From: Chiloscyllium plagiosum
Lineage: Eukaryota
Reading direction: 5' to 3'
Assembly: GCF_004010195.1 (NCBI RefSeq)
Contig: NC_057718.1
Coordinates: forward strand, 71,209,790 to 71,273,789
DNA: 64,000 bases
Within the stretch, counting starts at the first letter, position 1, and the number at the start of each line of letters is the position of its first letter. The position numbers were made by a program, and so were the translations under genes. The notes beneath the pieces were generated by a model. That model ran no database searches. It saw only the letters and a program-made list of their open reading frames with translations, and was not told where the DNA came from. Of the stretch, positions 14,625 to 61,977 are shown piece by piece.

Positions 14625-16760
14625 AGCCATAGAGATGTACAGCATGGAAACAGACCCTTCGGTCCAACCTGTCCATGCCGATCAGATATCCCAACCCAAT
14701 CTAGTCCCACCTGCCAGCACCCGGCCCATATCCCTCCAAACCCTTCCTATTCATATACCCATCCAAATGCCTCTTAAATGTTGCAATTGCAAACCTCCAC
14801 CACATCCTCTGGCAGCTCATTCCATACACGTACTACCCAGTGTGAAAACGTTGCCCCTCAGGTCTCTTTTATATCTTTCCCTCTCACCCTAAACCTATGC
14901 TCTCTACTTCTGGACTCCCCGATCCCAGGGAAAAGACTTTGTCTATTCATCCTATCCATGCCCCTCATAATTTTATAAACCTCTATAAGGTCACCCCTCA
15001 GCTTCCGACGCTCCAGGGAAAACAGCCCCAGCCTGTTCAGCCTCTCCATATAGCTCAAATCCTCCAACCCTGGCAACATCCTTGTAAATCTCTTCTGAAC
15101 CCTTTCAAGTTTCACAACATCTTTCCGATAGGAAGGAGACTAGAACTGCATACAGTATTCCAACAGTGGCCTAACCAATGTCCTGTACAGCCACAACATG
15201 ACCTCCCAACTCTTGTACTCAATACTCTGACCAATAAAGGAAAGCATACCAAACGCCTGTCTGCGACTCCACTTTGAAGGAGCTATGAACCTGCACTCCA
15301 AGGTCTCTTTGGTCAGCAACACTCCCTAGGACCTTACCATTAAGTGTATAAGTCCTGCTAAGATTTGCTTTCTCAAAATGCAGCACGTCGCATTTAACGG
15401 AATTAAACTCCATCTGCAACTTCTGCCATTGGCCCATCTCGTCCAAATCCTGTTGTAATCTGAGGTAACTCGCTTCGCTGTCCACTACACCTCCAATTTC
15501 GGTGTCATCTGCAAACTTACTAACTGTACTTCTTATGCTCGCATCCAAATCATTTATGTAAATGACAAAACGTAGAGGACCCAGCATCGATCCTTGTGGC
15601 ACACCACTGGTCACAGGCCTCCAGTCTGAAAAACAACCCTCCACCACCACCACCCTCTGTCTTCTATCTTTGAGCCAGTTCTGTATCCAAATGGCTAGTT
15701 CTCCCTGTATTTCNNNNNNNNNNNNNNNNNNNNNNNNNNNNNNNNNNNNNNNNNNNNNNNNNNNNNNNNNNNNNNNNNNNNNNNNNNNNNNNNNNNNNNN
15801 NNNNNNNNNNNNNNNNNNNNNNNNNNNNNNNNNNTGATACAAATATCTCAGCAAGAGGCCCAGCAATCACTTCACTAGCTTCCCACAGAGTTCTCAGGTA
15901 CACCTGATCAGGTCCTGGGGAGTTATCCACCTTTAACCGTTTCAAGACATCCAGCACTTCCTCCTCTGTAATCTGGACATTTTGCAAGATGTCACCATCT
16001 ATTTCCCTACAATCTATATCTTCCACAGTAAATACTGATGCAAAATATTCATTTAGTATCTCCCCCATTTTCTGTGACTCCACACAAAGGCCGCATTGCT
16101 GATCTTTGAGGGGCCCCTATTCTCTCCCTAGTTACCCTTTTTTCCTTAATATATTTGTAAAAACCCTTTGGATTCTCCTTAATTCTATTTGCCAAAGCTA
16201 TCTCATGTCCCCTTTTTGCCCTCCTGATTTCCCTCTGATCATGACACCAAGAAGGCAACACACCATTCTGATTTCTCACTGTCTGCCACAGAAATGTTTA
16301 TCTGTGCCTCTGACTATAGAATCCATCACAATTGACTGCTTAGAATCTGACGTACCTGTTACATTGGAGCCAGTCTCGGTACCAGCAACCTGGCTGTCAA
16401 TGCTACATTCGGAGAGTCCATCACCCCCTACATTTTCTAAAACAGCATACTTGTTGGGAATGGAGATAGCCACAGGATAATCCTGCACGAAATGTCAATC
16501 TCTCCTACCTTTCCTGGAGGTAACCAATGTCTCTGACTGTATCTGTATCTGTATCTGGAGTTTTTCTCTCTTGCGAGAATTTCCATCTGTCACACCCCTC
16601 AGCTTCTGTAAATTCCTCATTGCCCCTAACTGCCATTCAACCAATCCAATAGGATTCGCAACCAAACACACTTACTGCAGACATAATCATCAGTAACATG
16701 GAAACCCACATGTTCCACATCCATGAGGAAGAGCACATCACTCTACTAAAGGCCATCTAA
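14625..16760 (-). mobile_element. Young CR1 LINE ORF2 3' half plus adjacent CR1 ORF1 (esterase) fragment; contains assembly gap 15714-15834
   Basis: SKFADDTEIGG, SGVPQGSMLGP, LEYCMQF; ORF1 fragment NKYAVLENVGG...DSIVRGTD. Confidence 0.9.
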
Positions 16761-29709: not shown

Positions 29710-30175
29710 TCATAGGAAGGATTTAGAGGAATATTGGCCAGGTGCTAGCAGGTGGAACTAGATTGGGTTGGGATATCTGGTCGGCTCCCATTTCTATTTT
29801 AAGCCTGATGCAGCACAAGGGTTAGGAACAGCCCCTCGTTTTTCCATTTGGAACAAATTATTGCGCACGTTGAACTCTCCTGAACTCTACAACATGGATA
29901 GGATAGACAAAGTATTTTCCCTATGGCTGGGGAGTCCAGAACTAGAGGGCATAGGTTTAGGGTGAGAGGGGAAAGATATAAAAGAGACNNNNNNNNNNNC
30001 TGGTACAATTGCAACATTTAAGAGGCATTTGGATGGGTATATGAATAGGAAGGGTTTGGAGGGATATTGGCCGGGTGCTGGCAGGTGGGACTAGATTGGG
30101 TTGGGATATCTGTACAGCATGGACAGGTTGGACCGAAGGGTCTGTTTCCATGCTGTACAGCTCTATGACTCTATA
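29710..30175 (+). mobile_element. CR1 LINE 3' end fragments (gap 29989-29999)
   Basis: Near-identical to other CR1 3' UTRs ending CTCTATGACTCTAT. Confidence 0.85.
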
Positions 30176-32004: not shown

Positions 32005-32480
32005 TGTTCTGGATTAGTGGTGCTGGAAGAGCACAGCAGTTCAGGCAGCATCCAAGAAGCAGCGAAATCGACGTTTCGGGCAAAAGTCCTTCATCAGGAA
32101 TAAAGGCAGAGAGCCTTAAGCATGGAGAGATAAGCTAGAGTAGGGTGGGGGTGGGGAGAAAGTAGCATAGAGTACAATGGGTGAGTGGGGGAGGGAATGA
32201 AGGTGATAGGTNNNNNNNNNNNNNNNNNNNNNNNNNNNNNNNNNNNNNNNNNNNNNNNNNNNNNNNNNNNNNNNNNNNNNNNNNNNNNNNNNNNNNNNNN
32301 NNNNNNNNNNNNNNNNNNNNNNNNNNNNNNNNNNNNNNNNNNNNNNNNNNNNNNNNNNNGGGCGGTTTGGTTGATTGGTGCGGGTGTCCCGGAGATGTTC
32401 CCTAAAGCGCTCTGCTAGGAGGCGCCCAGTCTCCCCAATGTAGAGGAGACCGCATCGGGAGCAACGGATACAATAATACA
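32005..32480 (-). mobile_element. Penelope-like element 3' part with hammerhead motif at 32066-32100 (gap 32212-32359)
   Basis: GIY-YIG YCIRCSRCGLLYIGETGRLLAERFREH; CUGAUGA...GAAACGUC. Confidence 0.85.
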
Positions 32481-47159: not shown

Positions 47160-50100
47160 TCAGAATTGTAGCAGTAGAAAGACCATTCGGCGACCCAGCA
47201 AGTCTGAGTCTATAGTGCTCCTCCCAAGACTTGGGCAAAGTGGGCCACCCACCCCCACCACACTCACCAAATCATTTCAAATAGCTGTTTAATTTAATTA
47301 GTTGCTTAGTATTAAATTTAAACAATCTAATCTTTCGTAAAAATGACTAAAGGGAAGGAAGCCCGCAGCTCTCAGCAAGCAGGAACCCCTCACCCACCCT
47401 CTCCAGCTGCAGCTGAGGCGTCCGCAGCCGCTCCGGGGGACTTACCTACGGTGGCAAGTCTTGTGGAAATCATCTCCAAACTGGATGCGAAGATCGACGC
47501 TTTCATCGAAGAATCCCAAAGTCGATGGGACTCACTCTCGGCCGCGCTGCAAAAGCACAACCGAGACATGAAAGAAATCGAGCGCCAAGTCAGAGGGGCG
47601 GAGCTAAAGGCCGCGACCTCCAAAACTACAGCGCAATCGGCCGTGGATCGGGTCCGGACTCTCGAACAGCGAGTCCGGACTTAGAGAATCATATTGATGA
47701 CCTCGATAATCGAGGTCACCGAAAAAAATATTCGTTTGCTGTGCCTTCCCGAACGGGAAGAGGAAGGCCAGCTTACAGCGTTTCTTGAGCAGTGGCTGCC
47801 ACAGCTTTTAAATCTGGAGGCCAGATTAGGCCCGGTAAGGGTGGAATGGGCCTACCAGTTTGCAATACATGGGCCCGGCTTGAACCAGCGCCTTCGCCCG
47901 GTCCTGTTCCAGCTGCAGAGCGATAGGGAGAGGCAGATACTCCTAGAAGCCTCTAGAAATCTTGGAAAAGATTCCCAAGCCATGATCTATAAAGGATCCA
48001 AGATCATGTTATTCCAGGTCTTTTCCCCAGCTCTGGTCCGGGGAATGTTGGCGAAGAAGTGTTTAGGGACTTAAATATTCAGTACTCCTTATGCTACCCA
48101 GCAACGCTACGCTTTAACCATGAAGGATCCGTGTATAACTTCGGATCGCCAGAAAAGGCGAAGGAATGTTTGGACTCTCTTAGATAAATTGTAAGAGACA
48201 ATGGATGTTGGTTTGCCTTTACCCCATTTACCCCATTCCGGTTTATATCCCCCCCCCCTTTTCTTTTTTCTTACCTTACTGTTTAATATTATCTTGGGGG
48301 GGTGGGGAGAGGGATTTATTTATTTGTTCTCTAGTTAACAATTTTCTCCCCCCCTTGGGGTTGTTTTTTTTTATTATTCTATGTATATTCTATTTTACCT
48401 CTGTCTCTAGGAGCGGGGTTGTTTTCCCTTGCTATTTTGTATTATTATATTTAATTATTATTTGTTAAGGTTGTAATTTTATAGTTATATATGCTTACAC
48501 ATGGTATTAACATTATCAAATATATCCAGGTGTGGGTGGGGCGGTAGGGTGCTCACTGTTAACTCTAGCTTTGTATTATATCTGAATTCTCCTCATCTTA
48601 TTGAGGAGCGCCTGGGTCAAAGGTGGGGCATTGGTTGGGAGGGGATACGATGGACCTTTGGAAAGGAAGTGATACCCCCTGGGAACAGGGGGAAAATCTC
48701 CATTTAAATATGTTTTTTATTATTATTTAGAAATAGTTTTTTATTATACTGTTGTGAGTGTATTAGAGAGCCTTTAGTTTTGTGAATTTTATATGCTCTA
48801 TGCTCGGGATGTTCTGGATAGGGTTTCCCCTCCCGAGGGGTCTCGGATTTGCCCGGATGATTATGGTTGATCAGTCGGTTAAGTGGTGCACCTGGAATGT
48901 CCCCCCCGGCACACCCTTTTAAATTTATAATGGAAGCCTTCTCAAAATTGATGGCTTTTGGTGCCCGTCATACAATTATAGGGGGAGACTTTAATTGTAT
49001 TATGGATCCGGAAATAGATAGGATTCCCAAGAGTACTGCAGGAGTATCTCCCAGATCTAGACAATTGGTGGATCTGAACGAAGAATTAGGATTAGTAGAT
49101 GTCTTCATCCACAGGGTAGAGATTTTTCTTTTTACTCCAATCCACATGAATGCCATACCAGAATTGATACGTTTTTTGCCCCCTCGATTTTTTTAAATTC
49201 CATATCATCCTGTAAAATAGGTAGTATAGCAATTTCCGACCATGCTGCTGTATATATGGAAACCAAGGCGAGGACATCCCCTCGGCATTGGCATATGGAC
49301 CCCTTTCTAATGAAAGACAGTAAATTTGTAAAGTACATCTCTCAAGAATTTAAAACTTTTTTAGAAATTAATTTAGGTACAGCTAGCAACCCATCAATGA
49401 TGTGGGAGACCATCAAAGCTTACACGCGAGGTTTGATCATCTCCTACTCAGCGACCCAGAAAAAATTAAAGGGAGAACAACAGCATCTGCTTAAAAGCAG
49501 CTGAAACTGCATATGCTGATAGACCTTCTATTATTAAATTGCAAAGGATTACGGCCCTTAGGACAGCTCTAAACACTACGCTTACCCAAATGGCTCAGAG
49601 GGAAATATTATTTGCAAAACAAAGGTTATATGAATTTGGCGACAAACCGGGTAGATACATAGCATTTCTTGCAAAGAAAAAAAAGGCCCCTCAAACTATC
49701 ACGTCTATCAAGGAAAGTACGGGTATTTTGACTCATGATCATAAAAAGATTAAATGCAATCTTTAGAAAATTTTATTCTGATTTATATAAATCGCAGGAG
49801 TGTGAAGACAGGACGAGGAGGATGCAATCATTTTAAAAAAATTTGACCTTTCCCGCCTAACTCCGGAACAGGTATCGGTCTTAAATGCTCCCCTAACAGT
49901 CCAAGAAATACTTGATGCAATTAGGCAACTTCAGAGCGGTAAGGCACCGGGCCCAGATGGTTTTCAAGCTGAATTCTATAAAGAATTTACAGAAATATTG
50001 GCTGGTCCACTTATGGACATGTATAACTATGCATATAGTCAGGGTTGTCTCCCACCTTCGCTGAAAGAGGCAAATATCTCTCTTATCCTTAAAAAAGGAA

Positions 50101-51250
50101 AGGATGCAGAAGATTGTATGTCATACAGACCAATATCCTTGCTAAATGTAGATTTTAAAATCCTTTCTAAAACGTTAGCACTGAGACTAGAAGGGGTACT
50201 GCCACATATTATAAAGGAGGATCAGACGGGGTTTATTAAGGGCCGTAGATCATCCAATAATATTAGAAGGGTTTTGAATATGATTCAAGCCTGTCATCAG
50301 GGAAAGATACCAGGAGTAGTAGTTTCATTAGACGCGGAAAAGGCATTTGATAGGGTTGTTTTACATATTTGTTTTACACATCGGAAAGATTTGGCATTGG
50401 AAAGGTGTTTATCAAATGGGTCTCAACATTGTATAGTGATCCCAAAGCAGTTGTGGTTACCAATGGATTAGGTTCGGATAGCTTCAGTGTGGGTAGGGGG
50501 TGCCGTCAGGAATGTCCCCTCTTGCCATTGTTATTTACATTAATAATTGAACCACTAGCAGAAGCTATACGGGCTGATCCTAATATAACGGCCCCGAGGA
50601 TTGGTACAGGTCAACATAAAATTACCCTTTATGCAGATGATGTTCTTCTATTCCTCAGTAATTCTCTGATGTCCATACCTCGCTTAATCCAAGTTAATAC
50701 ATTTAGCGCATTCTCAGGCTATAAAATTAATTTCTCAAAATCGGAGGTTTTGCCAATGGGTGGCCTTGCTATGATACCCCACTTAGTGGACGGATCCCAC
50801 TTTCCCTTTCGGTGGTCCCGGGAGGGTTTCTTATTGTTGTGGTTCTGTTCGCCGAGCTGGAAGTTTTTGTTGCAAACGTTTCGTCTTCTGGCTAGGTGAC
50901 ATCATCAGTGCTTGGGAGCCTCCTGCGAAACGCTTCTTTGATGTTTCCTCCCCTGGAGGGTTTCTTATATTTAGGTATTTTCAGTATTTGGTCAGTTATA
51001 CAAGGCTAACTTTGTGCATTTACTAGATAGGATAAGGCAGGACCTCCAGCGATGGGGAGACCTTCCAATTTCCTGGCTGGGTAGAATAGCACTAATTAAA
51101 ATGAATGTCCTGCCCTGTCTCCTATACCCTAGGAGAACGCTTCCGGTGATGCTGCCGAGGCTGGCACTCCGTAAATTATATGGCTGGTTGGGTTCCTTTA
51201 TCTGGAATCATAGTCGGCCCCTCATTAAGCTGAGGAAGCTACAGCTTCCT
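47160..51250 (+). mobile_element. L1-clade LINE, 5'-intact but decayed and 3'-truncated (ORF1 47343-48187, ORF2 from 48863)
   Basis: ORF1 coiled coil plus DDLDNRG-RKNIR, RPVLF, YPATL; ORF2 WNV, GGDFN, ISDH, GKAPGPDGF, YRPISLLN, SLDAEKAFDRV, LYADD; T-rich inter-ORF spacer. Confidence 0.9.
50835..50950 (-). mobile_element. 116-bp Penelope family B terminal fragment carrying an intact hammerhead (50872-50911)
   Basis: 18-bp TSD CCC(G/T)GGAGGGTTTCTTAT; GCA-CUGAUGA-U-GUC-loop-GAC-GAA-ACGU-U/UGC. Confidence 0.8.
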
Positions 51251-51497
51251 AACCTGCAATCTTCTTCCTGACCTCTCCGTCCCCATCCCCACTCCGGTCT
51301 ATCACCCTCACCTTAACCTCCTTCCACCTATCGCATTTCCTAAGCCCCTCCCCCAAGTCCCTCCTCCCTAACTTTTATCTTAGCCTGATGGGCACACTTT
51401 CCTCATTCCTGAAGAAGGGCTCATGCCCGAAACGTTGATTCTCCTGCTCCTTGGATGCTGCCTGACCTGCTGCGCTTTTCCAGCAACACATTTTCAG
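51250..51497 (+). mobile_element. Penelope 3' end with intact hammerhead core (51405-51441)
   Basis: AUUC-CUGAAGA-A-GGGC-UCAU-GCCC-GAAACGUU-GA. Confidence 0.8.
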
Positions 51498-51499
51498 AA

Positions 51500-54310
51500 C
51501 AAGAAACAGGAGTAAACAAAAGAAGGCAGATGCGATTAAGGCATTTTAGAAGTATATTAAATAGCATTACAAAGAAAAGAGTGGGGCCTATTGGAGATCA
51601 CATGGTAATCTGCGTGGATCCAGACGATGTGGGTGAGGTCTGAAATGAATGTTACTCATCTGTATTCATGAAAGAAACATGTTGAGGTTCTAAAGCATGT
51701 TAAAGTTGATAATATTAAGATTATTAATAAAAGGTGGTATTAGATGTTTTAGCGGCATAAAAAGGTGCATAAATTCCCAGGGCCCGATGAAATGTATCCC
51801 AGACTGCAATGAAAGGCAAGACAGGAGATTGCTGGGGCCCTGGCAGAGATATTTAATTTTCACTGGTCACAGATGAAGAGCCAGGTGACTGGAGGATAGC
51901 TAACATAGGACAGCATGGATAGGCCAGGTAATTACAGATCATTTAGTCTGACATCACTGATAAGAAAACTATTGGAAAAAATTCTGAGGGACTGGATGCA
52001 TCAATGCTTGGAAAGACTAAGACAAGGATTAATCACAGATTTGTTAGAAGGAGATTTTGTCTGTCTTATTTAATTGAGTTTTTTGAAAAGATGACTAAAT
52101 GCATTGATGACGGTAGTGCAGTTGATGTGGTTTACATTGTCTTGAGTAAGGCATTTCAAAAAGGTTCGTCCAAAAGATAAGAACCCATGCAACCGATGGC
52201 AAGTTGGCAAACTGCAACCAAAATCTTGCAGCAATTTGAAGGCAAATGGTGATTGTGGAAGGGTGTTTTTGTGAGTGGAGGCGTATGACCATCAGTTGTA
52301 TCACAGATCAGTGCCAGGATCCTTGTTGTTTGTTATGTACATTCACATGCAATTTGTTAGTGTGGAAGGTATAGTTAGCAAGTTTGCAGATGACACCATA
52401 AGACATAGGAGTATAATTAGGGTGTATAATTCAGCCCATCAAGTCTGCCACTCTATTCAATCATGGCTGATATGTCTCTCAACTCCAAGTCCCCATAACG
52501 GCACGGTGGGCGGCACTGTGGCTCAGTGGTTAGCACTGCTGCCTCACAGCGCCAGGGACCCGTGTTCAATTCCTGCCTCGGGCAACTGTCTGTGTGGAGT
52601 TTGCACGTTCTCCCAGTGTCTGCGTGGGTTTCCTCCGGGTGCTCCGGTTTCCTCCCACAGTCTAAAGATGTGCAGGTTAGATGAATTGGCCATGCTAAAT
52701 TGCCCGTAGTGTTAGGTGTAGGGGAATGGGACTGGGTGGGTTGCTCTTCGGCAGGTCGGTGTGGGCTTGGTGGGCCAAAGGGCCTGTTTCCACACTGGAG
52801 GGAATCTAATCTAATCTAATCATAACCCTTGATCCCCTTACCAATCAAAAAGCTATCTATTCTGTCTTAAATATCTCAATAACTTGGCCTCCACAGCACT
52901 CTGCAACAATGAGTTCCACAGATTAACCATCTTCTGGCTGAAAGAGTTCTTCCTCACCTCAGTTCTAAAGGGTTCAATCCAGTCCTGGTCTCTTCTACAT
53001 CTTCTCCACGTCCACTCTATCCAGGCCTCTCAGTATTCTGTAAGTTTCAATCAGATTGCCACTTATTTTTCAAAACTTCATCGAGTACATACCCAGAGTT
53101 CTCATATGATAAGCCTTTCATCCTGGGATCATTCATATAAACCTCCTCTGTACCCCTCCAAACACAGCACATCTTTCCTTAGATACAGTGCCCAAAACTG
53201 CTCACAATATTCCAAATGTGGTCTGACCAGAGCCTTATACAGCAGTACATTTTTGCTCCTGCATTCTATCCTTCTTGAAATGAATCCTAACATTGTGTTT
53301 GCCTTTCTAACTGCCAACTGAACCTCCATGTTAACCTTAAAGGAATCCTGAACTCTGACTTCCAAGTCCTTTGTGCTTCAGATTTCTGAAGCCTTTCCCC
53401 ACTTAGAAAATGATTACGCCTCTACTCTTCTACCAAAATGCACAACCTCACAATTCACCCATTGTATTCCATCTGCCATATCTTCATCCACTTTCCTAGC
53501 CTGTCCAAGACTTCTTACAGCTTCCCGGCTTCCTCAACACTACCTTCCCCTCCACTTATCTTTGTGTCAAATGCAAACTAAGTAACAATGCCCTCATTTC
53601 CTTCATCCAGATCAATAATGTTTAATATCAATATTTACAGACCCTGCAGAACTCTACTAACCACTAGTTGCCATCCCGAAAGAGACTTCTTTACCCCTAC
53701 TCTCTTGCCTTCTGCCAGTCAGCCAATTCTCGACCCATGCCAGTATCTTGTCCCTAACACCATGGTCTCCCTAATTATTTCAGATCCTCCTGTGCGGCAC
53801 CTTGTCAAAAGCCTTTTTGGAAATCTGAATAGATCATATCCACTGGCTCTCATTTGTTTAACATGCTTGTTACCTACTCAAAGAATTCTAACAGATTTTT
53901 CAGGCATGAACATCCCCTGACTCAGCTCTACTTTCCCCATGCACTTGTAAGTACTTGGTAAACTCATCCTAAATGGACTCTTCAAATCATACCAATGACT
54001 TAGGTCAGGCTAACCAGCTGATAGTTTCCTGCCTTCTGCCTCAAATGATGGAAGAACTAAGCACATCAGTGCAAAAGAGAAGGCTGAAGCTTTCGCAGCA
54101 ATCTTCAACCAGAAGCACTGAGTGGATGATCCACCTCAGCTTCCTTCAATGGTCCCCAGCATTACAAATTCCAGTCTTCAGCCAATTCAATTCACTCTAC
54201 ATGATATTAAGAAATGGTTGGAGACATTGGATAGTGCAAAAGCTACAGGCCCTGACAACATTCTGGAAATAGTATTGAAGACTTGTACTCCAGAAATTGC
54301 CACTCCCTGT
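51500..54310. mobile_element. CR1-clade LINE fragments on both strands, with HE1-type SINE on the plus strand at 52500-52821
   Basis: SKFADDT, LEYCEQFW, KATGPDNI motifs; complete SINE. Confidence 0.8.
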
Positions 54311-55316
54311 TTAAAATAAGCAACAGGCCACTTGATGCTCCTTCCACATTCCAGAATATAATGTGGCAGACTCTGGATTCAGTTTCATAGCTAATTGTTT
54401 TAGCACAATTAGGATCCCCGCAAGAATGGGGGGATGGTTATAACTCGGAAAACAGAGAATAGAAGGTTATTCATACAAGCTGCCGTATAGAAGTGTTTGC
54501 GAGAAGCAGGTTTCCCCAGAAGCAAGGACAGTGTATGGCAAAGGGGATGGATATGGTTAACAGCTTTGTGTTCTATGTGTAGAGAATTAGAAGAGTGCCA
54601 GGCCAAAAAGGAAACTTGAGGCCGCAGTGACGGCGTTAGAACAGTGTAACATCATTCTAGCAGAAGCAGTAAAGACAGCACAGAAGAGAGCCGAGAAGGT
54701 GGAAGAGAAGCACTGACATAGTATGCTATCTGGTGAAGGTACAACAGAAAAAGAGAGCAAAACAGTGCAATTGGAAAGTTGACCCAGCCAATGTGCGCAC
54801 ATTATTAACTTCACAATTAGAATTTGGCATTCACCTGATTCAGAATGTGAATGGATGGAAGGGGAAGGGGGTGCTCTCGGAGCCATCTTCAGAAAAGGGA
54901 TTAGTAGCATGATCTCTAATAACAAATAAGGCAAAATTAATAGTAGGACAAAACCCACAAAATTCAAGAATATTGAGAGATTACTCTAGGTTTGAATAAC
55001 AGTATTTGGGGTTGCACTTTAAGCAGGAGTCAGGTGAACTTTTCAAGTCTTGGCTGACGGGGTCATGGGATTAGTATGCCACCCATATCATTCTGAGTGT
55101 CACCAAGTGAGGAAATCTGAGAGCATTAAGTAGTGATCCACATGCGAATAACAGTTTTAGCAACATAAAGCAAACTAGATTGCTGTGGGATGCACTGTTA
55201 CTACCAGTAGGAACCAATATCCATCCCTGATCAATTGGGAAGGAGATGTTGAAAAATGGGAGAACATACCAGAAAGTATAAAACATCTGAAAGATTTGGC
55301 TTCAGCAGTATGTATT

Positions 55317-56382
55317 GGCAAGTCAGGCAGCATCTGAGAAGCAAGAGAGTCGGTGTTTTGACTTTCACCATAGGACTGGGGAAGGGGACTGAGAAGTAAA
55401 TAGGGGGAGGCAGGTGGGGCTGGAGAAAAGGTAGTTGGGATGGCTATAGGTGGGCAAAGGCAGGAGGTGATTGTGATAGGTTAGTTGGGCTGTACTGCAT
55501 CCGTTGCTCTCGATGTGGTCTCCTCTATATCAGAGACTGAGTGCAAACTCGCAGAATTTTTTAAGAATCCCTACAGTGTGGAAACAGGCCCTTCAGTCCA
55601 CACTGACTCTCCAAAGAGCAACCCACCCAGACCAATTCCCCTATCCTATTATCCTATATTTACCCCTGCACCTAATCAACACATCCCTGAAAACAATGGG
55701 CAATTTATCATGGCCAATTCACCGAACCTATACATCTTTGGATTGTGGGAGGAAACTGGAGCACCCAGAGGAAACCCACGCAGTCACGGGGAGAATGTGC
55801 AAACTCCACACAGACAAACACCCGAGGTTGGAATCAAACCTGGGTCCCTGGCGCTGTGAGGCAGCAGAGCTAACCACTGAGCCACCGTGCTGCCTTCAGG
55901 GAACATCTCTGGTCTGTACGCACCATCCAATTCCGGCTTCCTGGAGCCATAGATTTCAATTCCCTCTCCCACTCCTCCCATGCCAAGGTCAACTGCAAAC
56001 CAGAGAAGGAACACATCAGCTTCCATCTCAGAAGCCTACAACCACACAGCCTCAACATTGAATTCACAGTTTCCAAATCTCTCCTCCCTGCACCTAATCC
56101 TAGATCCAACCCTCCAACTGAGCCCCACTCTCTTGATCTGCCCTACCTGTCCATCTTGCTTCCCATCAATCTATCACAATCACCTCCTACCTTCACCCAC
56201 CTATCGCCATCCCAACTATATTTCCCCCTGCCCCACCTCTTCCTCCTCCCCAGTCATGAGGAAGGGTTAAGCCTGAAATGTTCACTGTCTTGCTCATCAG
56301 ATGCTGCCTGACCTGCTGTGCTTTTTCCAATGTCACACTTTATCAACTCTGACTTCTCTAGCATCTCACGATCTCCAAGTGG
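55317..56382. mobile_element. Penelope-like insertion (inverted structure) into ERV gag, itself containing an HE1-type SINE (55562-55893, -)
   Basis: 9-bp TSD GTATGTATT at 55308-55316 and 56383-56391; GIY-YIG remnant. Confidence 0.75.
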
Positions 56383-56987
56383 GTATGTATTCTCAACAGT
56401 TTCAGGGTCCAGACCAGGAAGCTTTCACAGCTGGAATGAGGAGCCAACTAATGTTAAGTGGTCTGGGCTGGATGAGAGATGCTGTATTAGCCCTATTAGG
56501 GCCAACCCAGAGACAGGCAGTGGAACAGGCATGTTTGTTGTTAGGACAGTTAGAGGATGTGGAGGCTGGTAAGCAAACAAACAATGAGGCCCACCCAAGC
56601 AAGGGAGAACAGGGACAAGGTGGGTTGGGTTCAAAGGTGGAACAAAACATAAATCAGAGAAGAAATGCTTGAGAAATTATTAAAAGCAGGAATAGAGTAG
56701 GGTAAGATAGATGGTATATCCACAGTTACCATATACACAATGTGGAGGACGCACTGCTCTCCAAAAGGTAAGGAAGTGAGAGATACTAAATGAGATGTGG
56801 AGGGAGAAAGTGACTGCATCTCCCACATCATCACTATACCCTAAGCTGGAGAAGCAAGGGCAGTTGTGGTGAGCCAGCCAGCCAATTGATTAAAGTGGGG
56901 CCGCGACTCTGGGGTGTTTGCAAGGGTGACCAGAGATCCAAGACCTCATATCCCCAAGACCGCTTATTGGAGGAAAGTCAAAGGCAA

Positions 56988-57449
56988 TGTAAACCAGATA
57001 TCACATCATTAGACACTAATATTATACAAGGCAATCCACATGTTTTGCCAACATTGAACCAATGAGATGATCTGATGTTGGGGGGATATAAGAATCCAGA
57101 CATTTTGAAAATTAATCAGAGTTCAACTGCTGCAGAGAGAAACTGCTGGAGATTGCCCACCAAACATCCTGCTCTCAAAGAAATTAGAAAACACTATCAA
57201 AAGGTAAATCTTCATGTGAAATATACTCAATAAAAAAAAAAGACAGTAGAAAGGGGGCCTTAGATTTGTGAATAATTGTTGGTTAATGTTGACTTTTAGA
57301 GTTAAAGAATAAATTTATATTATTTCCTTTAAATAATGGCATTTAGGAGATCTTGGTCACTCAGATTTTAACAGATTACAAGAGGAGGCGAGCTTTTCTG
57401 GGTGTTTGGTTTACTTAACAGAAAAAAGGTTTGCCTCCGTGTCATAACA
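56988..57449 (+). mobile_element. LTR fragment occupying the ERV protease region
   Basis: 3' end TTTGCCTCCGTGTCATAACA homologous to the LTRs at 2329-3080 and about 61977. Confidence 0.65.
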
Positions 57450-58829
57450 GTACAATGTGCTGTAAAGAAATATGATGGAAGTTGGCAAATGATAGTTGAT
57501 TACCGCCAATTCAAGAAATATGCTCCTCAAACGTCAATGGCCATGCTTAATATAGTCACTGTATAGAAAATTTGTCACAGGGACCAAATGCCTGGTATGC
57601 CATTATTGATCTAACAAATGTCTTTTGCTCGATACCAATAAGCCCAGAATCACAAGCTCAGTTTGATTTTACATGGGAAGCTTGCCAATATACCTTCTGT
57701 TGGCTACCACAAATTACCTACACCCAACCTTGTAGCAAGGGACTTAGATAGGTGTCCACTGCACCAGACATTTATGCAGCACATTACATTGATTATATAT
57801 TGATCCACAGACCAATGGATACTGCTTTGGCAGAAGCTCTAGCCATATTGGTGCACCATATGCAAGACAGAGGTTCGGAAGTGAACCCAAAGAAGATACA
57901 GGGACAAGCACAGTGCAGTTTTCAGACATTTAGTGGACAAAAGGGGGATAGAGTCATCATTGAAAAAGTAAAGAATAAAAATACAAGAAATGGCTGTTCC
58001 AATTAGCAAGGCTGAGGCATAGAAAATTATAGGTCTGTTTGGATATTGGTGCAGATATATGCCTCACTTTAACAGGTTAAGAAGACTTTTGTCATTACTT
58101 GAAAGAAAGCTCAGTTTGAATGGGGCGATGAACAACAGAAAGCATTGATGGCCGCGAAAGAGGCTGTAGCACTAGCACTTCCCCAGGCACCTCAGATACC
58201 TGGCTTACCATGTGAATGTCAAGTATCAGTAGTGTAAAATGTAGCAACGTGGTGCTTATGTCAGAGACAGAAGGGGAAAGCAATGCCTTTGGGCTTCCAG
58301 TCCAGAAAACTGTCTGAGGCAGCTATGCACTACACGTCATTTGAAAAGCAACCTCTGGCTTGCTACTGGGGCCTAGTAGAAACTGAAAAGCAGATGGGTG
58401 AGGACAAAGTGCTCCTCAGACCTGAATTATCAGTCCTGACATGTGTTACCTGATGTTGTGAACCACAAGATCGGTACAGCCCAATAAAGCTGCAATGTAA
58501 AATGAAAATGGTGTATGGCTGATTGAGCCAAGAAGGGAAAGGAACTGGTTGCCAACTCTATGTACAAATAACTGAATACAACTAAGTCAACAAACTCAGA
58601 GTTCCAACCTGGCTACACGTGCATCTCCAGTTCAATGGGACATTCTGTTTGAATAACTGTCCAAAGATACTCATCACTCTGCTTGGTACACTGATGGATC
58701 AGCCACCTGGAGGAATGGCCAAGGGTGATGGTGAGCAGTTTAATCCCTTCACACATACAATCATCCATAGTAAAAGGAGATGGGGGAAATCGAGCCCATG
58801 TACCGAATTGGCTGCTGGAGAGTCAGTGT

Positions 58830-59615
58830 CTATATTAAGTATAAAGGGAAACTAGGGAGAGAATAGGGCCCCTCAAAGATTAGCAAGGCAGTCTGTCTCA
58901 GAGGAGTCACAGGAGATGAGGAGCTACTAAATGTGTACTTTGCATCAGTGTTTACTGAAGAAGGACATGGAACAAATAGAATGTGGGGAAATGAATGGTC
59001 ACATCTCGAAAAATTTCCACATTATAGAGGATGGATGCTGGATGTCTTGAAACGCAAAGAAGTGGATAAATCCTCAGGACCTGATCAGGTGTACCTTAGA
59101 ACTGTGGGAAGCGATTGCTGGGCCCCTTGTATCATTGATAGTCACAGGAGGTGCCGGAAGACTGGAGGTTGGCTAATGTGGTGCCACTGTTTAAGAAAGG
59201 TGGTAAGGAAAAGCCCAGTGAGCCTGATATCAGTGGTGGGCAAGTTGCTGCAGGGAATCCTGAGAGACAGGATTTACTTGTATTTGGAAAGGCAAGGACT
59301 AATTAGGGATAGTCAACATGGCTTTGTGCATGGGAAATCACATCTCTCAAACTTGATCGAGTTTTTTGAAGAAGTAACAAAGAGGATTGAGGAGGGCAGA
59401 GCCGTGGACGTGATCTATATGGATTTCAGTAAGGCATTTGACGAGGTTCCTCGTGGAAGACTGGTTAGCAACGTTAGATCTCATGCAAACCAGGGAGATC
59501 TAGCCATTTGGATACAGGACTGGCTTGAAGGTAAAAGATAAAGGATGGTGGTGGAGGGCGGCTTTTCAGACTGGAGCCCTGTGGCCAGTGGTGTGCCACA
59601 AGGATTGGTGCTACC
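58830..59615 (+). mobile_element. CR1 LINE RT fragment
   Basis: ORF 58933: SQHGFVHGKS-LSNLIEFFEEVT, IYMDFSKAFD. Confidence 0.9.
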
Positions 59616-59924: not shown

Positions 59925-61977
59925 AGTGTGTGTTCACTTTAAGATGTGCTGAATTTTTAAAGTAAATTTAAATACAGCCATGGCTCTAGAATAGAACAGC
60001 TAAGAGACAGGTTGTTCCAAAATAGATACATGTAGCAAATGGCTGTTAAATGGATACCGGAGTTTGGTTGCTGACTTAGTGGAGAAAGTGAGGTCTGCAG
60101 ATGCTGGAGATCAGAGCTGAAAATGTGTTGCTGGAGAAGCGCAGCAGGTCAGGCAGCATCCAGGGAACAGGAGAATCGACGTTTCGGGCATTTCCTGAAG
60201 AAGGGCTTATGCCCGAAACGTTGATTCTCCTGTTCCCTGGATGCTGCCTGACCTGCTGCGCTTCTCCAGCAACACATTTGCTGACTTAGTAACAATTCAA
60301 ATTTAACCAATTAATTAAAATTATGCCCAGGATACTAAAACCCAATTGAGTTTGAATTTATGTATGAACAACATCGGACGAATGAGAGGAGTATAAAACC
60401 AGGCAATTTGAAAATTGATCAGAGCAACTACTGCCGAACAGCAGAGCAACTACAATGGAGCCAGAGAGCCAACTGCCCATCTAACATCTTGCTGTCAAAG
60501 ACATAGGAAGGTACTCTCTATCAAAAGGTACCTTTTCCTGTAAAAGCAGTAAAAAGTAAGACAACAACCCAGGGAGTTCAGCAGATAGAAGCAGAGAATG
60601 TGTGGACTTGAGATTAAGTTAATGTAATGCTTAATAATTGTGGATTTTGGGTAATCTGTAGAAGCGTGGTATGTTGGATCCATCTGGTTTCATTTTTTGG
60701 AAGTCTGTCTCCTTTAATTCTCCATATTTCTGAAGATTTTTGAATAAGACGGTGATTAGGTTCTCTAGATTTGGGTCTATTTTCACATGTTGTTGGTAAG
60801 TGTCAATATCTGCAACTGTGCATTCGCTTTCTCAATGTACTCTGTTCATTTTAAAATGACTGTCAAGCATCCTTTGTCTGCAGGTAGGAGAGCAATGTTT
60901 TTTATCTTTTGAGTTCTTCTAGTGCCTTCCTTTCTTGTGTATTGAGTGTGTTTCCTTCCATTTTCCTGCTTAATGTTGGTACAACTGTCTGTATGATGTT
61001 TTGCTAGGTTTCTTCTGTGAGTTAATTATCTTTCAGTGTTGTTTCTAATGCTGCTAAGAAATCTTTCTTGTCTGCATCCTGGAAGTTGTAATTTAATCGT
61101 CTTTTCAGTGTCTGTTAAGTGTCGGACAGATAATATTTTATTATCCATGCTTGGAGTTGGTCTACTTTTTTTTCCTGCAGGTCTAGTTTTTTTGTTTTCT
61201 TATTAAAGCAGCTGCTAATGAACTTAAAAGACCCTATATGTAACAAAGTACCTTGCAAGAACTACAACACTATACTGGACAAACAGGCAGAAAACTAACC
61301 ATCAGGATACATGAACATCAACTCGCCACAAAAAGACATGACCCCTCTCACTAGCATCCTTACATACAGATAATGAAGGACACCACTTCGATTGGGACAA
61401 CACATCTATTCTAGGACAAGCCAAACAGAGACATACACGAGAATTCTTAGAAGCATGGTATTCCAACCGGAACTGTATCAACAAACACATTGACTTGGAT
61501 CCCATTTGCCACCCCCTGAGAAAAAAAAAGAACAGGAAGTAACATCAACAACCCAAGGAAACCTAAACACAAATAGAAAGCAGGACATAAAACCAGTGCT
61601 TCACCAGAGGCTCATTGATGATGTTACCTAGTATGATGATGAAACTTCTGAAAATGAACCTTCCAGCTCAGCCAGCAAACGTACATCTAGAACCTCAACC
61701 TGAGCTACAAATCTTCTGAAAACTCACTTAATAATTGTGTTATTGGAGGAGCATTTTTATAGAGTTGGGACCAGATCGTAAGTAGTTAAGAAAAAGGGGC
61801 TTGGATTTCTTTTTTTGTTGTTTAGAGTTCGCAAGTAGAATTCAGAAAATAACTTCAATACTTTAAAAAAAATGTATGAGTTCCCTTTCACTCACTCACT
61901 TTTAACAGATTGCAAAGTGAGCTTTTCCGGATGTTTGGTTTTAATTAACAGAGGAGTTTGTCCTCCACGCTGTAACA
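59925..61977 (+). mobile_element. Solo LTR with nested Penelope insertions (60081-60277 and about 60650-61730)
   Basis: Homology to 2329-3080; ends CTGTAACA. Confidence 0.65.
60081..60277. mobile_element. Hairpin mini-element with hammerhead core
   Basis: 13-bp TSD TTGCTGACTTAGT; 71-bp arms (60121-60191 and 60209-60279) with one mismatch; CUGAAGA lies in the 17-nt loop. Confidence 0.85.

Follow-up and report, generated by a model that had tools for sequence, protein, structure and literature searches.

A broken and truncated ERV-L-like class III retrovirus in Chiloscyllium plagiosum, probably a fossil copy of a family published from the whale shark

The gag gene of ERV-L is the origin of mouse Fv1. 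Here we describe a relic of an ERV-L-like endogenous retrovirus (ERV) in a 64,000-nucleotide (nt) stretch of the genome of the shark Chiloscyllium plagiosum (assembly GCF_004010195.1, contig NC_057718.1, positions 71,209,790 to 71,273,789 of the forward strand). This whole stretch is called the window, and coordinates below are window positions. The retrovirus to be compared with it is rh_ty_ERV3, a whale-shark consensus of about 5.7 kb (Xu et al. 2018, PMC6001957, S2 Data). Statements about this and the other papers cited refer to the portions of each that were available for comparison. In the tip order of S2 Fig of that paper, Rh_ty_ERV3, No_fu_ERV1, HERVL, Murine_ERVL/Nan_par_ERV9 and HERVS head clade Huo, with support values of 0.83 and 0.99 alongside, and snakehead retrovirus (SnRV) follows much later, beside Rh_ty_ERV2. 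The available main text does not term rh_ty_ERV3 ERV-L-like.

Other anamniote relatives are on record. ERV-L-like elements have been published from frogs (PMC8278194; bioRxiv 10.1101/2024.07.05.601823), and No_fu_ERV1 is an ERV-L-like element of a killifish (PMC6001957). Table 2 of PMC8278194 gives ERV-L-like class III elements a YIDD-type catalytic motif and a Gag that lacks a CCHC zinc knuckle. For cartilaginous fishes, a 2024 screen counted 2843 clade III reverse transcriptase (RT) loci in six chondrichthyan genomes, with clade III forming the majority of their ERV RTs (PMC11089739), and both SnRV-like and epsilon-like lineages have been described from the elephant shark (PMC4422223). We found no publication devoted to shark ERV-L, in a search outside which lay most of the subscription literature, as did Dfam and Repbase. 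The available portions of PMC10699275, PMC10435555, bioRxiv 10.1101/2021.11.23.469661 and 10.64898/2026.05.06.723177 hold no ERV-L statement for sharks.

Judged from its sequence, the element at 54318-58816 (plus strand) is an ERV-L-like class III (clade Huo) retrovirus relic, broken and truncated, with the order gag, protease start, RT, tether and RNase H start (Table 1). Its retroviral gene order, ERV-L-like RT, near-identical gag, broken frames and lost ends lead us to read it as, very probably, a dead and passively inherited provirus fragment that belongs to the rh_ty_ERV3 family or to a very close sister. It would thus be an ordinary fossil copy of something already known since the whale-shark publication of 2018. 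A first-pass annotation, made from the letters of the window, had described colinear gag, protease start, RT, connection domain and RNase H across three insertions, and all of these pieces are indeed present, in order and on the plus strand. The many frameshifts that it had reported can now be counted: frameshift-aware alignment gives 5 + 4 + 9 = 18 frameshifts and 6 + 5 + 10 = 21 stops across 318 + 181 + 442 = 941 aligned codons. Translation of 54000-59200 yields short frames only.

Table 1. Pieces of the retroviral relic, its insertions and the repeats that abut it
Feature	Position	Strand	Basis
LINE-like fragment abutting gag start, in the place of leader, primer binding site (PBS) and 5' long terminal repeat (LTR); outside the provirus	54050..54310	+	translation
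gag 5' part: matrix-like N-terminus, coiled stretch, first half of capsid; broken	54318..55304	+	frameshift-aware alignment to P0188
Insertion 1: composite host repeat, ~1.07 kb, with nested SINE-like repeat 55564-55899	55305..56375	.	self-matches
gag 3' part: second half of capsid, C-terminal region; broken	56376..56900	+	tblastn with P0188
Protease start; catalytic motif damaged by short deletion	56929..57090	+	tblastn and frameshift-aware alignment; right edge by eye
Insertions 2 and 3: host repeats	57093-57221 and 57263-57422	.	match 60396-60545; 2352-2516 / 61892-61952
RT: fingers, palm, thumb; broken; catalytic motif with one aspartate substituted	57450..58120	+	Pfam RVT_1, phmmer
Tether/connection domain (degenerate RNase H fold) and linker	58121..58623	+	Pfam RT_RNaseH_2, E = 1e-9
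True RNase H start; truncated	58624..58816	+	tblastn with P0188, P0169
LINE-type RT fragment at the 3' end of the element; outside the provirus	58831..59612	+	RVT_1, E = 1.4e-6

Pfam RVT_1 recognizes the RT with E = 1e-6 on P0001, the translation of 57551-58516 in a single frame, its 7 stops written as X (P numbers are identifiers of proteins in this analysis). Compared by phmmer with 1.84 billion protein representatives, P0001 has 456 matches at E ≤ 0.001, 5 of them below 1e-30 and the best at 1e-51. The top named matches are gene models of caecilian, bichir, stingray, toadfish and white shark, and no representative is more than about 58% identical. Identity is 35-42% to ERV-L-like proteins versus 23-29% to those of Gypsy or epsilon type. 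Frameshift-aware alignment of the pol block to the unnamed protein P0182 gives 197 identical residues in 442, with 10 stops and 9 frameshifts. The YI-type start of the catalytic motif is kept, and the nearest relatives read YIDD. The motifs quoted in the first-pass annotation are ERV-L's own versions; those of the window are similar but differ in their letters (WYAIIDLTNVFCSIP, SEVNPKKIQG, GLFGYW, FEWGDEQQKA and FEKQPLACYWGLVETE). A word-index protein search with the broken pol, which covers longer proteins only, returned nothing among 2226 candidates, and this is weak evidence.

A separate connection domain ahead of RNase H had been taken as the mark of a retrovirus, and the domain is there. 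The RT_RNaseH_2 match lies on residues 191-278 of P0001 (58121-58384), linker matches follow at 58443-58553, and a second RNase H begins near 58681 (tblastn E = 1e-4 to 6e-3, the lower value with both P0188 and P0169). A tether between the RT and a second, true RNase H is what distinguishes Retroviridae from Gypsy, and the element has it. Only the start of that RNase H remains, so the earlier report of the domain holds for its beginning: Pfam RNase_H covers positions 5-26 of 141 at no better than E = 0.18, and a LINE-type repeat (LINE, long interspersed nuclear element) breaks the domain off at about 58830. At the other end of pol, the protease match (about 56929-57040) has E = 0.07 alone yet lies in register, and about the first third of the domain is left.

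Gag is recognized through the stingray protein P0188. Five stretches of it (within residues 7-500) match 54318-56766 colinearly at E < 1, with a summed score of 153 bits; the best, residues 388-439 against the gag 3' part, reaches E = 5e-5. Shuffled P0188 gag gave no match in the region with any of 50 queries. Frameshift-aware alignment of the 5' part to P0188 residues 7-375 has 92 of 318 residues identical, with 6 stops and 5 frameshifts, and the gag 3'/protease block 67 of 181, with 5 stops and 4 frameshifts; at identities of 29-37%, the positions of the gag stops and frameshifts are approximate. No CCHC knuckle was seen by eye in 56376-56900, where the end of gag is decayed, or by Pfam in P0188, and Pfam scans of the window and of P0188 gave no family for the window gag. 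An Atlas search with the stingray gag returned look-alikes all below 0.9, which are leads only. The window gag itself, used as query in the word-index search of longer proteins, found no relative among 163 candidates, again weak evidence.

The RT tree that the first-pass annotation had proposed as a check agrees with its assignment to ERV-L-like class III. With the RT region of the best match as query we found 190 relatives, and the 120 listed include proteins of amphibians, lungfish, killifish, rays, sharks and birds. A first FastTree took in 94 rows drawn from 283 proteins, and 48 of these, picked by hand to cover each group, entered IQ-TREE, on RT plus tether (392 columns, of which the window fills 231 after masking of out-of-frame stretches). 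Apart from the named rows, group labels are analyst-assigned; those of the 5 Gypsy-type rows follow tree position and Pfam. MuERV-L, XtERV-S and the window share a clade of 29 rows (support 100/100, branch length 0.98). Within it the window belongs to an inner clade of 23 rows (97/95), and pairs there with P0188 and P0004, two rows from the stingray Hemitrygon akajei (96/95). The class I rows with WEHV1 (98/89) and the Gypsy-type rows (100/100) form groups of their own without the window. MuERV-L is not its sister with starred support (94/86, a group of 12 rows). Broad ERV-L-like membership is thus indicated by the RT and tether; the dUTPase, env and PBS regions are lost in this copy. Among the reference rows, P0180 is MuERV-L, its four motifs all being offset by 58 from ERV-L Y12713 in Table 2 of PMC8278194 and its cluster of 753 members including mouse records. 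P0190 is XtERV-S, with four motifs all offset by 17 from the XtERV-S column of the same table, and the record name of P0057 is WEHV1 Pol.

The family within this group is suggested by gag. The comparison with rh_ty_ERV3 covers the first 400 bases and first 400 residues of the published sequence and was counted by eye. Window 54880-55070 is identical at 161 of 191 nt and 44 of 64 amino acids, and window 56379-56573 at 55 of 65 amino acids. The DNA identity of 84% (a 16% difference) in the stretch counted lies above the roughly 80% that would place a copy in the same family, as judged for gag only. A 20-nt rh_ty_ERV3 motif has one match in the window, with 1 mismatch, and none in 100 shuffles. 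The first-pass annotation had left undecided whether the lineage was already catalogued, and had said that an existing annotated shark family would remove the novelty. Since rh_ty_ERV3 is such a published family and matches in gag, the implied novelty falls.

Several observations weigh against this identification. The rh_ty_ERV3 match is in gag alone and counted by eye, with pol outside the comparison, and the published topology was taken as tip order and support numbers from extracted PDF text, not from the drawing. Within pol, the best pairwise score belongs not to the stingray rows but to P0182 (50% over 231 columns). The window ends on a long branch (0.88) and fills 231 of the 392 columns of the tree. 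That tree, from which the long-branched P0093 of the FastTree is also omitted, holds no named SnRV, foamy, HERV-L or HERV-S row. Finally, six class III rows presumed to be on the SnRV/foamy side fall outside the ERV-L-like clade, whose sister is class I (93/89, unstarred), so the 48-row tree does not support deep monophyly of class III.

These points bear first on the possibility that the element belongs to a sister family, distinct and not yet catalogued, whose gag is shared with rh_ty_ERV3, either through an invasion of its own or as a gag/pol recombinant. We consider this improbable. It would account for the DNA of the one stretch counted differing by 16% from the whale-shark consensus, in a comparison limited to gag, and for the lack of close proteins among the 1.84 billion representatives or of any relative of the window gag. 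However, old age and decay would give a member of the same family just such a 16% difference, along with its many stops and indels, and where all copies of a family have decayed no intact protein is left to detect. The word-index searches with broken queries missed even pol and are therefore insensitive. Were a sister family the answer, it would still be a sibling of the published one.

That the element is instead SnRV-like or foamy-like is very unlikely. The elephant shark has published SnRV-like ERVs (PMC4422223); its CmiERV lineage I stands on the class III side, but groups with SnRV and not with ERV-L. The best PDB matches of the window are the RTs of foamy virus and murine leukemia virus, and the tree was built without a named SnRV row. 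Those PDB matches are weak, however (E = 1e-8), against E = 2e-44 and 36% identity to MuERV-L Pol for the single-frame read, and the long, fully supported branch described above joins the window to MuERV-L and XtERV-S. In the tip order of PMC6001957, SnRV stands beside Rh_ty_ERV2 and far from Rh_ty_ERV3, and the visible rh_ty_ERV2 gag is unlike that of the window.

Some Gypsy lineages have two RNase H-like domains, and Gypsy- and epsilon-type proteins do occur in the tail of the P0001 match list. We nevertheless give a Gypsy (Metaviridae) retrotransposon or an epsilonretrovirus-like element hardly any credence, because both groups exclude the window in the tree and its protein identity to them is the lower of the two ranges given above. 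Equally negligible is the chance that gag was co-opted as an Fv1-like gene, as the ERV-L source of Fv1 might suggest, or that the breaks are assembly errors: gag is split by a 1-kb repeat and carries about 11 stops and 9 frameshifts with protease included, and the stops are substitutions rather than homopolymer slips. Some 40 such errors would lower, without excluding, the share of sampled 31-mers (up to 0.57) that is present in the contigs of a second study. Contamination from a mammal or bird was rejected on the grounds that repeats of the window sit inside the element and its nearest kin are elasmobranch.

The 31-mer figure comes from sequencing runs in which the stretch was found as DNA. 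Organism A accounts for 8 such runs, with a word share of 0.46-0.80; they belong to 2 studies, and the assembly may derive from one of these. There was no RNA run among those listed as containing the stretch. For organism B, the share is 0.21-0.31 in 8 runs belonging to 4 studies, and lower values are listed in B and C. Because the stretch contains common repeats, orthology in organism B is a lead only.

Returning to the rh_ty_ERV3-type provirus, its missing parts are those expected of truncation. Integrase and dUTPase gave no match below E = 0.1 anywhere in the 64 kb (tblastn with parts of three relatives), nor did the later RNase H parts of three relatives give a credible one. Outside the element, 7 of 347 queries produced 76 matches, all in LINE-type repeats of the window. 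Neither the 20 largest repeat families of the window nor its self-comparison contain a long direct repeat bracketing the element as LTRs would, and env was not found in the window. No PBS-like match lies near the element; the pattern searched for had 3 matches elsewhere against 0.71 expected, and ARAGORN found 0 tRNA genes. Both ends are replaced by LINE-type fragments, which explains the absence of LTR, PBS and integrase. The copy appears inert: it would make no protein and could not move.

By established retroviral biology, the ancestor would have made Gag and a Gag-Pol polyprotein, reverse-transcribed its RNA and become established by integration in the germ cells of an ancestral shark. Its family may have spread by infection, with an env, or within the cell as mammalian ERV-L does. 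The copy may then have been silenced and have decayed neutrally while receiving at least three host-repeat insertions. Its LTRs, most of the protease gene, integrase and anything downstream were probably lost via deletions at LINE-type junctions. An elephant-shark rate for short interspersed nuclear elements (SINEs) of 1.0-1.1 x 10^-3 substitutions per site per million years (PMC5499810, where another rate is about seven times slower) would turn the 16% difference into roughly 150 million years, a soft figure that holds if the founding viruses were alike. As a further dead representative of a shark ERV family already in print, the copy has little significance by itself. It is useful for dating: being old and carrying nested repeats, it can be looked for at orthologous positions in other carpet sharks.

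Compared with rh_ty_ERV3, the gag is nearly the same and runs likewise into the protease start, and the published family is listed beside HERVL and Murine_ERVL in clade Huo. The window differs in being one decayed copy with three repeat insertions that ends in RNase H, and upstream of the first base of the published sequence it retains about 510 nt more of gag. With MuERV-L and HERV-L it shares the gag-protease-RT-tether-RNase H order and common RT and tether motifs, MuERV-L standing in the same RT plus tether clade; the strict ERV-L traits (dUTPase after integrase, no env, Leu PBS) fall in parts that the window has lost. The stingray proteins P0188 and P0004 are its nearest neighbours in the tree, and the gag of P0188 matches colinearly, but protein identity is only about 28-38%. 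Both are annotated as uncharacterized proteins, the label under which ERV-L-like proteins are mostly hidden. P0188 (a 13-member cluster) has gag, protease, RT, RNase H and integrase and no dUTPase match, unlike MuERV-L and P0182. Within the clade dUTPase looks patchy: P0002 and P0182 have one, and P0190 has no Pfam match though its paper assigns one. A viral contig scan with P0188 gave 26 pattern matches, none of them confirmed.

Farther off in the 23-row clade is the Pol of XtERV-S from Xenopus tropicalis (P0190, PMC8278194; E = 2e-31), an intact element with a class I-type env, unlike the window copy. The anuran AnERV6/8 (bioRxiv 10.1101/2024.07.05.601823) are likewise published anamniote ERV-L-like elements. 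White shark P0161/P0007/P0218 and killifish P0178, which is from the same species as No_fu_ERV1 (PMC6001957), form a separate subclade of the 23 rows with short branches (100/99). Sharks therefore carry at least two ERV-L-like lineages, and the grouping of white shark with killifish suggests a shark-teleost transfer. The first-pass annotation had called the lineage best known from amniotes. This is too narrow: ERV-L-like retroviruses span jawed vertebrates, from rays, sharks, bichir, killifish and lungfish to amphibians, turtles, birds and mammals, and with relatives in so many anamniotes the lineage is not amniote-centred.

A more doubtful reading, which we think unlikely, is an elasmobranch-only ERV-L-like sublineage, made up of the window and the two stingray proteins (96/95), that adjoins MuERV-L and is older than the shark-ray split. 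Against this reading, the clade ignores host phylogeny, in that an owl stands next to lungfish and frog and the white shark next to a killifish. Its branches are short for such an age, and the MuERV-L link is unstarred. This disregard of host phylogeny favours host jumps, as was concluded for clade Huo groups in PMC6001957. No publication stating an elasmobranch ERV-L sublineage was found, and the whale-shark member already stands in the published tree (PMC6001957). Co-divergence of the sublineage with sharks and rays, rather than jumps between them, would make it the nearest relative that mammalian ERV-L has in the sea and would date the ERV-L group to before the shark-ray split. Should it prove to be inherited vertically and to be the sister of mammalian ERV-L, the group that supplied MERVL and Fv1 would have a deep marine root.

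Two owl proteins and one unnamed protein in this set deserve mention. Barn owl P0167 is 71% identical to caecilian Pol over the RT region and nests among frog, newt and lungfish rows, which looks like an amphibian-to-bird jump; burrowing owl P0183 is similar, at 64%. The unnamed Logan protein P0093 (1374 residues, contig of 7586 nt, a single record) has ERV-L-like protease, RT and tether, with a thymidylate kinase (PF02223, E = 2e-20) before RNase H and a thymidine kinase (PF00265, E = 4e-8) and dUTPase downstream, and no integrase match. Either this retroviral-type Pol carries an unusual set of nucleotide-metabolism domains or the record is a mis-assembly.

The three insertions of the first-pass annotation correspond to three repeat blocks, defined by self-comparison of the window (for the first block, with edges set by eye against rh_ty_ERV3). 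Pieces of insertion 1 match up to 8-11 further places in the window, and the gag text on either side of it is contiguous, by eye, in rh_ty_ERV3 (PMC6001957). Inverted arms (55402-55482 versus 56168-56247, 84%; 55318-55350 versus 56284-56316) surround its nested repeat. We presume from the arms that it is Penelope-like, and take the nested repeat to be SINE-like; neither has a Pfam match. The description as insertions holds less well at the second and third site, where P0188 residues ~585-718 have no counterpart: the protease and the RT N-terminus lack about 135 recognisable codons there, and the break is thus loss as well as insertion.

The LINE-type fragment beyond the RNase H has up to 4 matches elsewhere in the window and is matched by LINE-derived parts of bird gene models; we assume it to be CR1. 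The fragment before gag has no Pfam match and presumably resembles LINE ORF2. Runs of N, marking assembly gaps, lie at 15714-15834, 29989-29999 and 32212-32359, none inside the element. Upstream, at 47685-51545, a decayed LINE has ORF1-like and RT-bearing frames (RVT_1 E = 1.6e-14 at 49806-50468).

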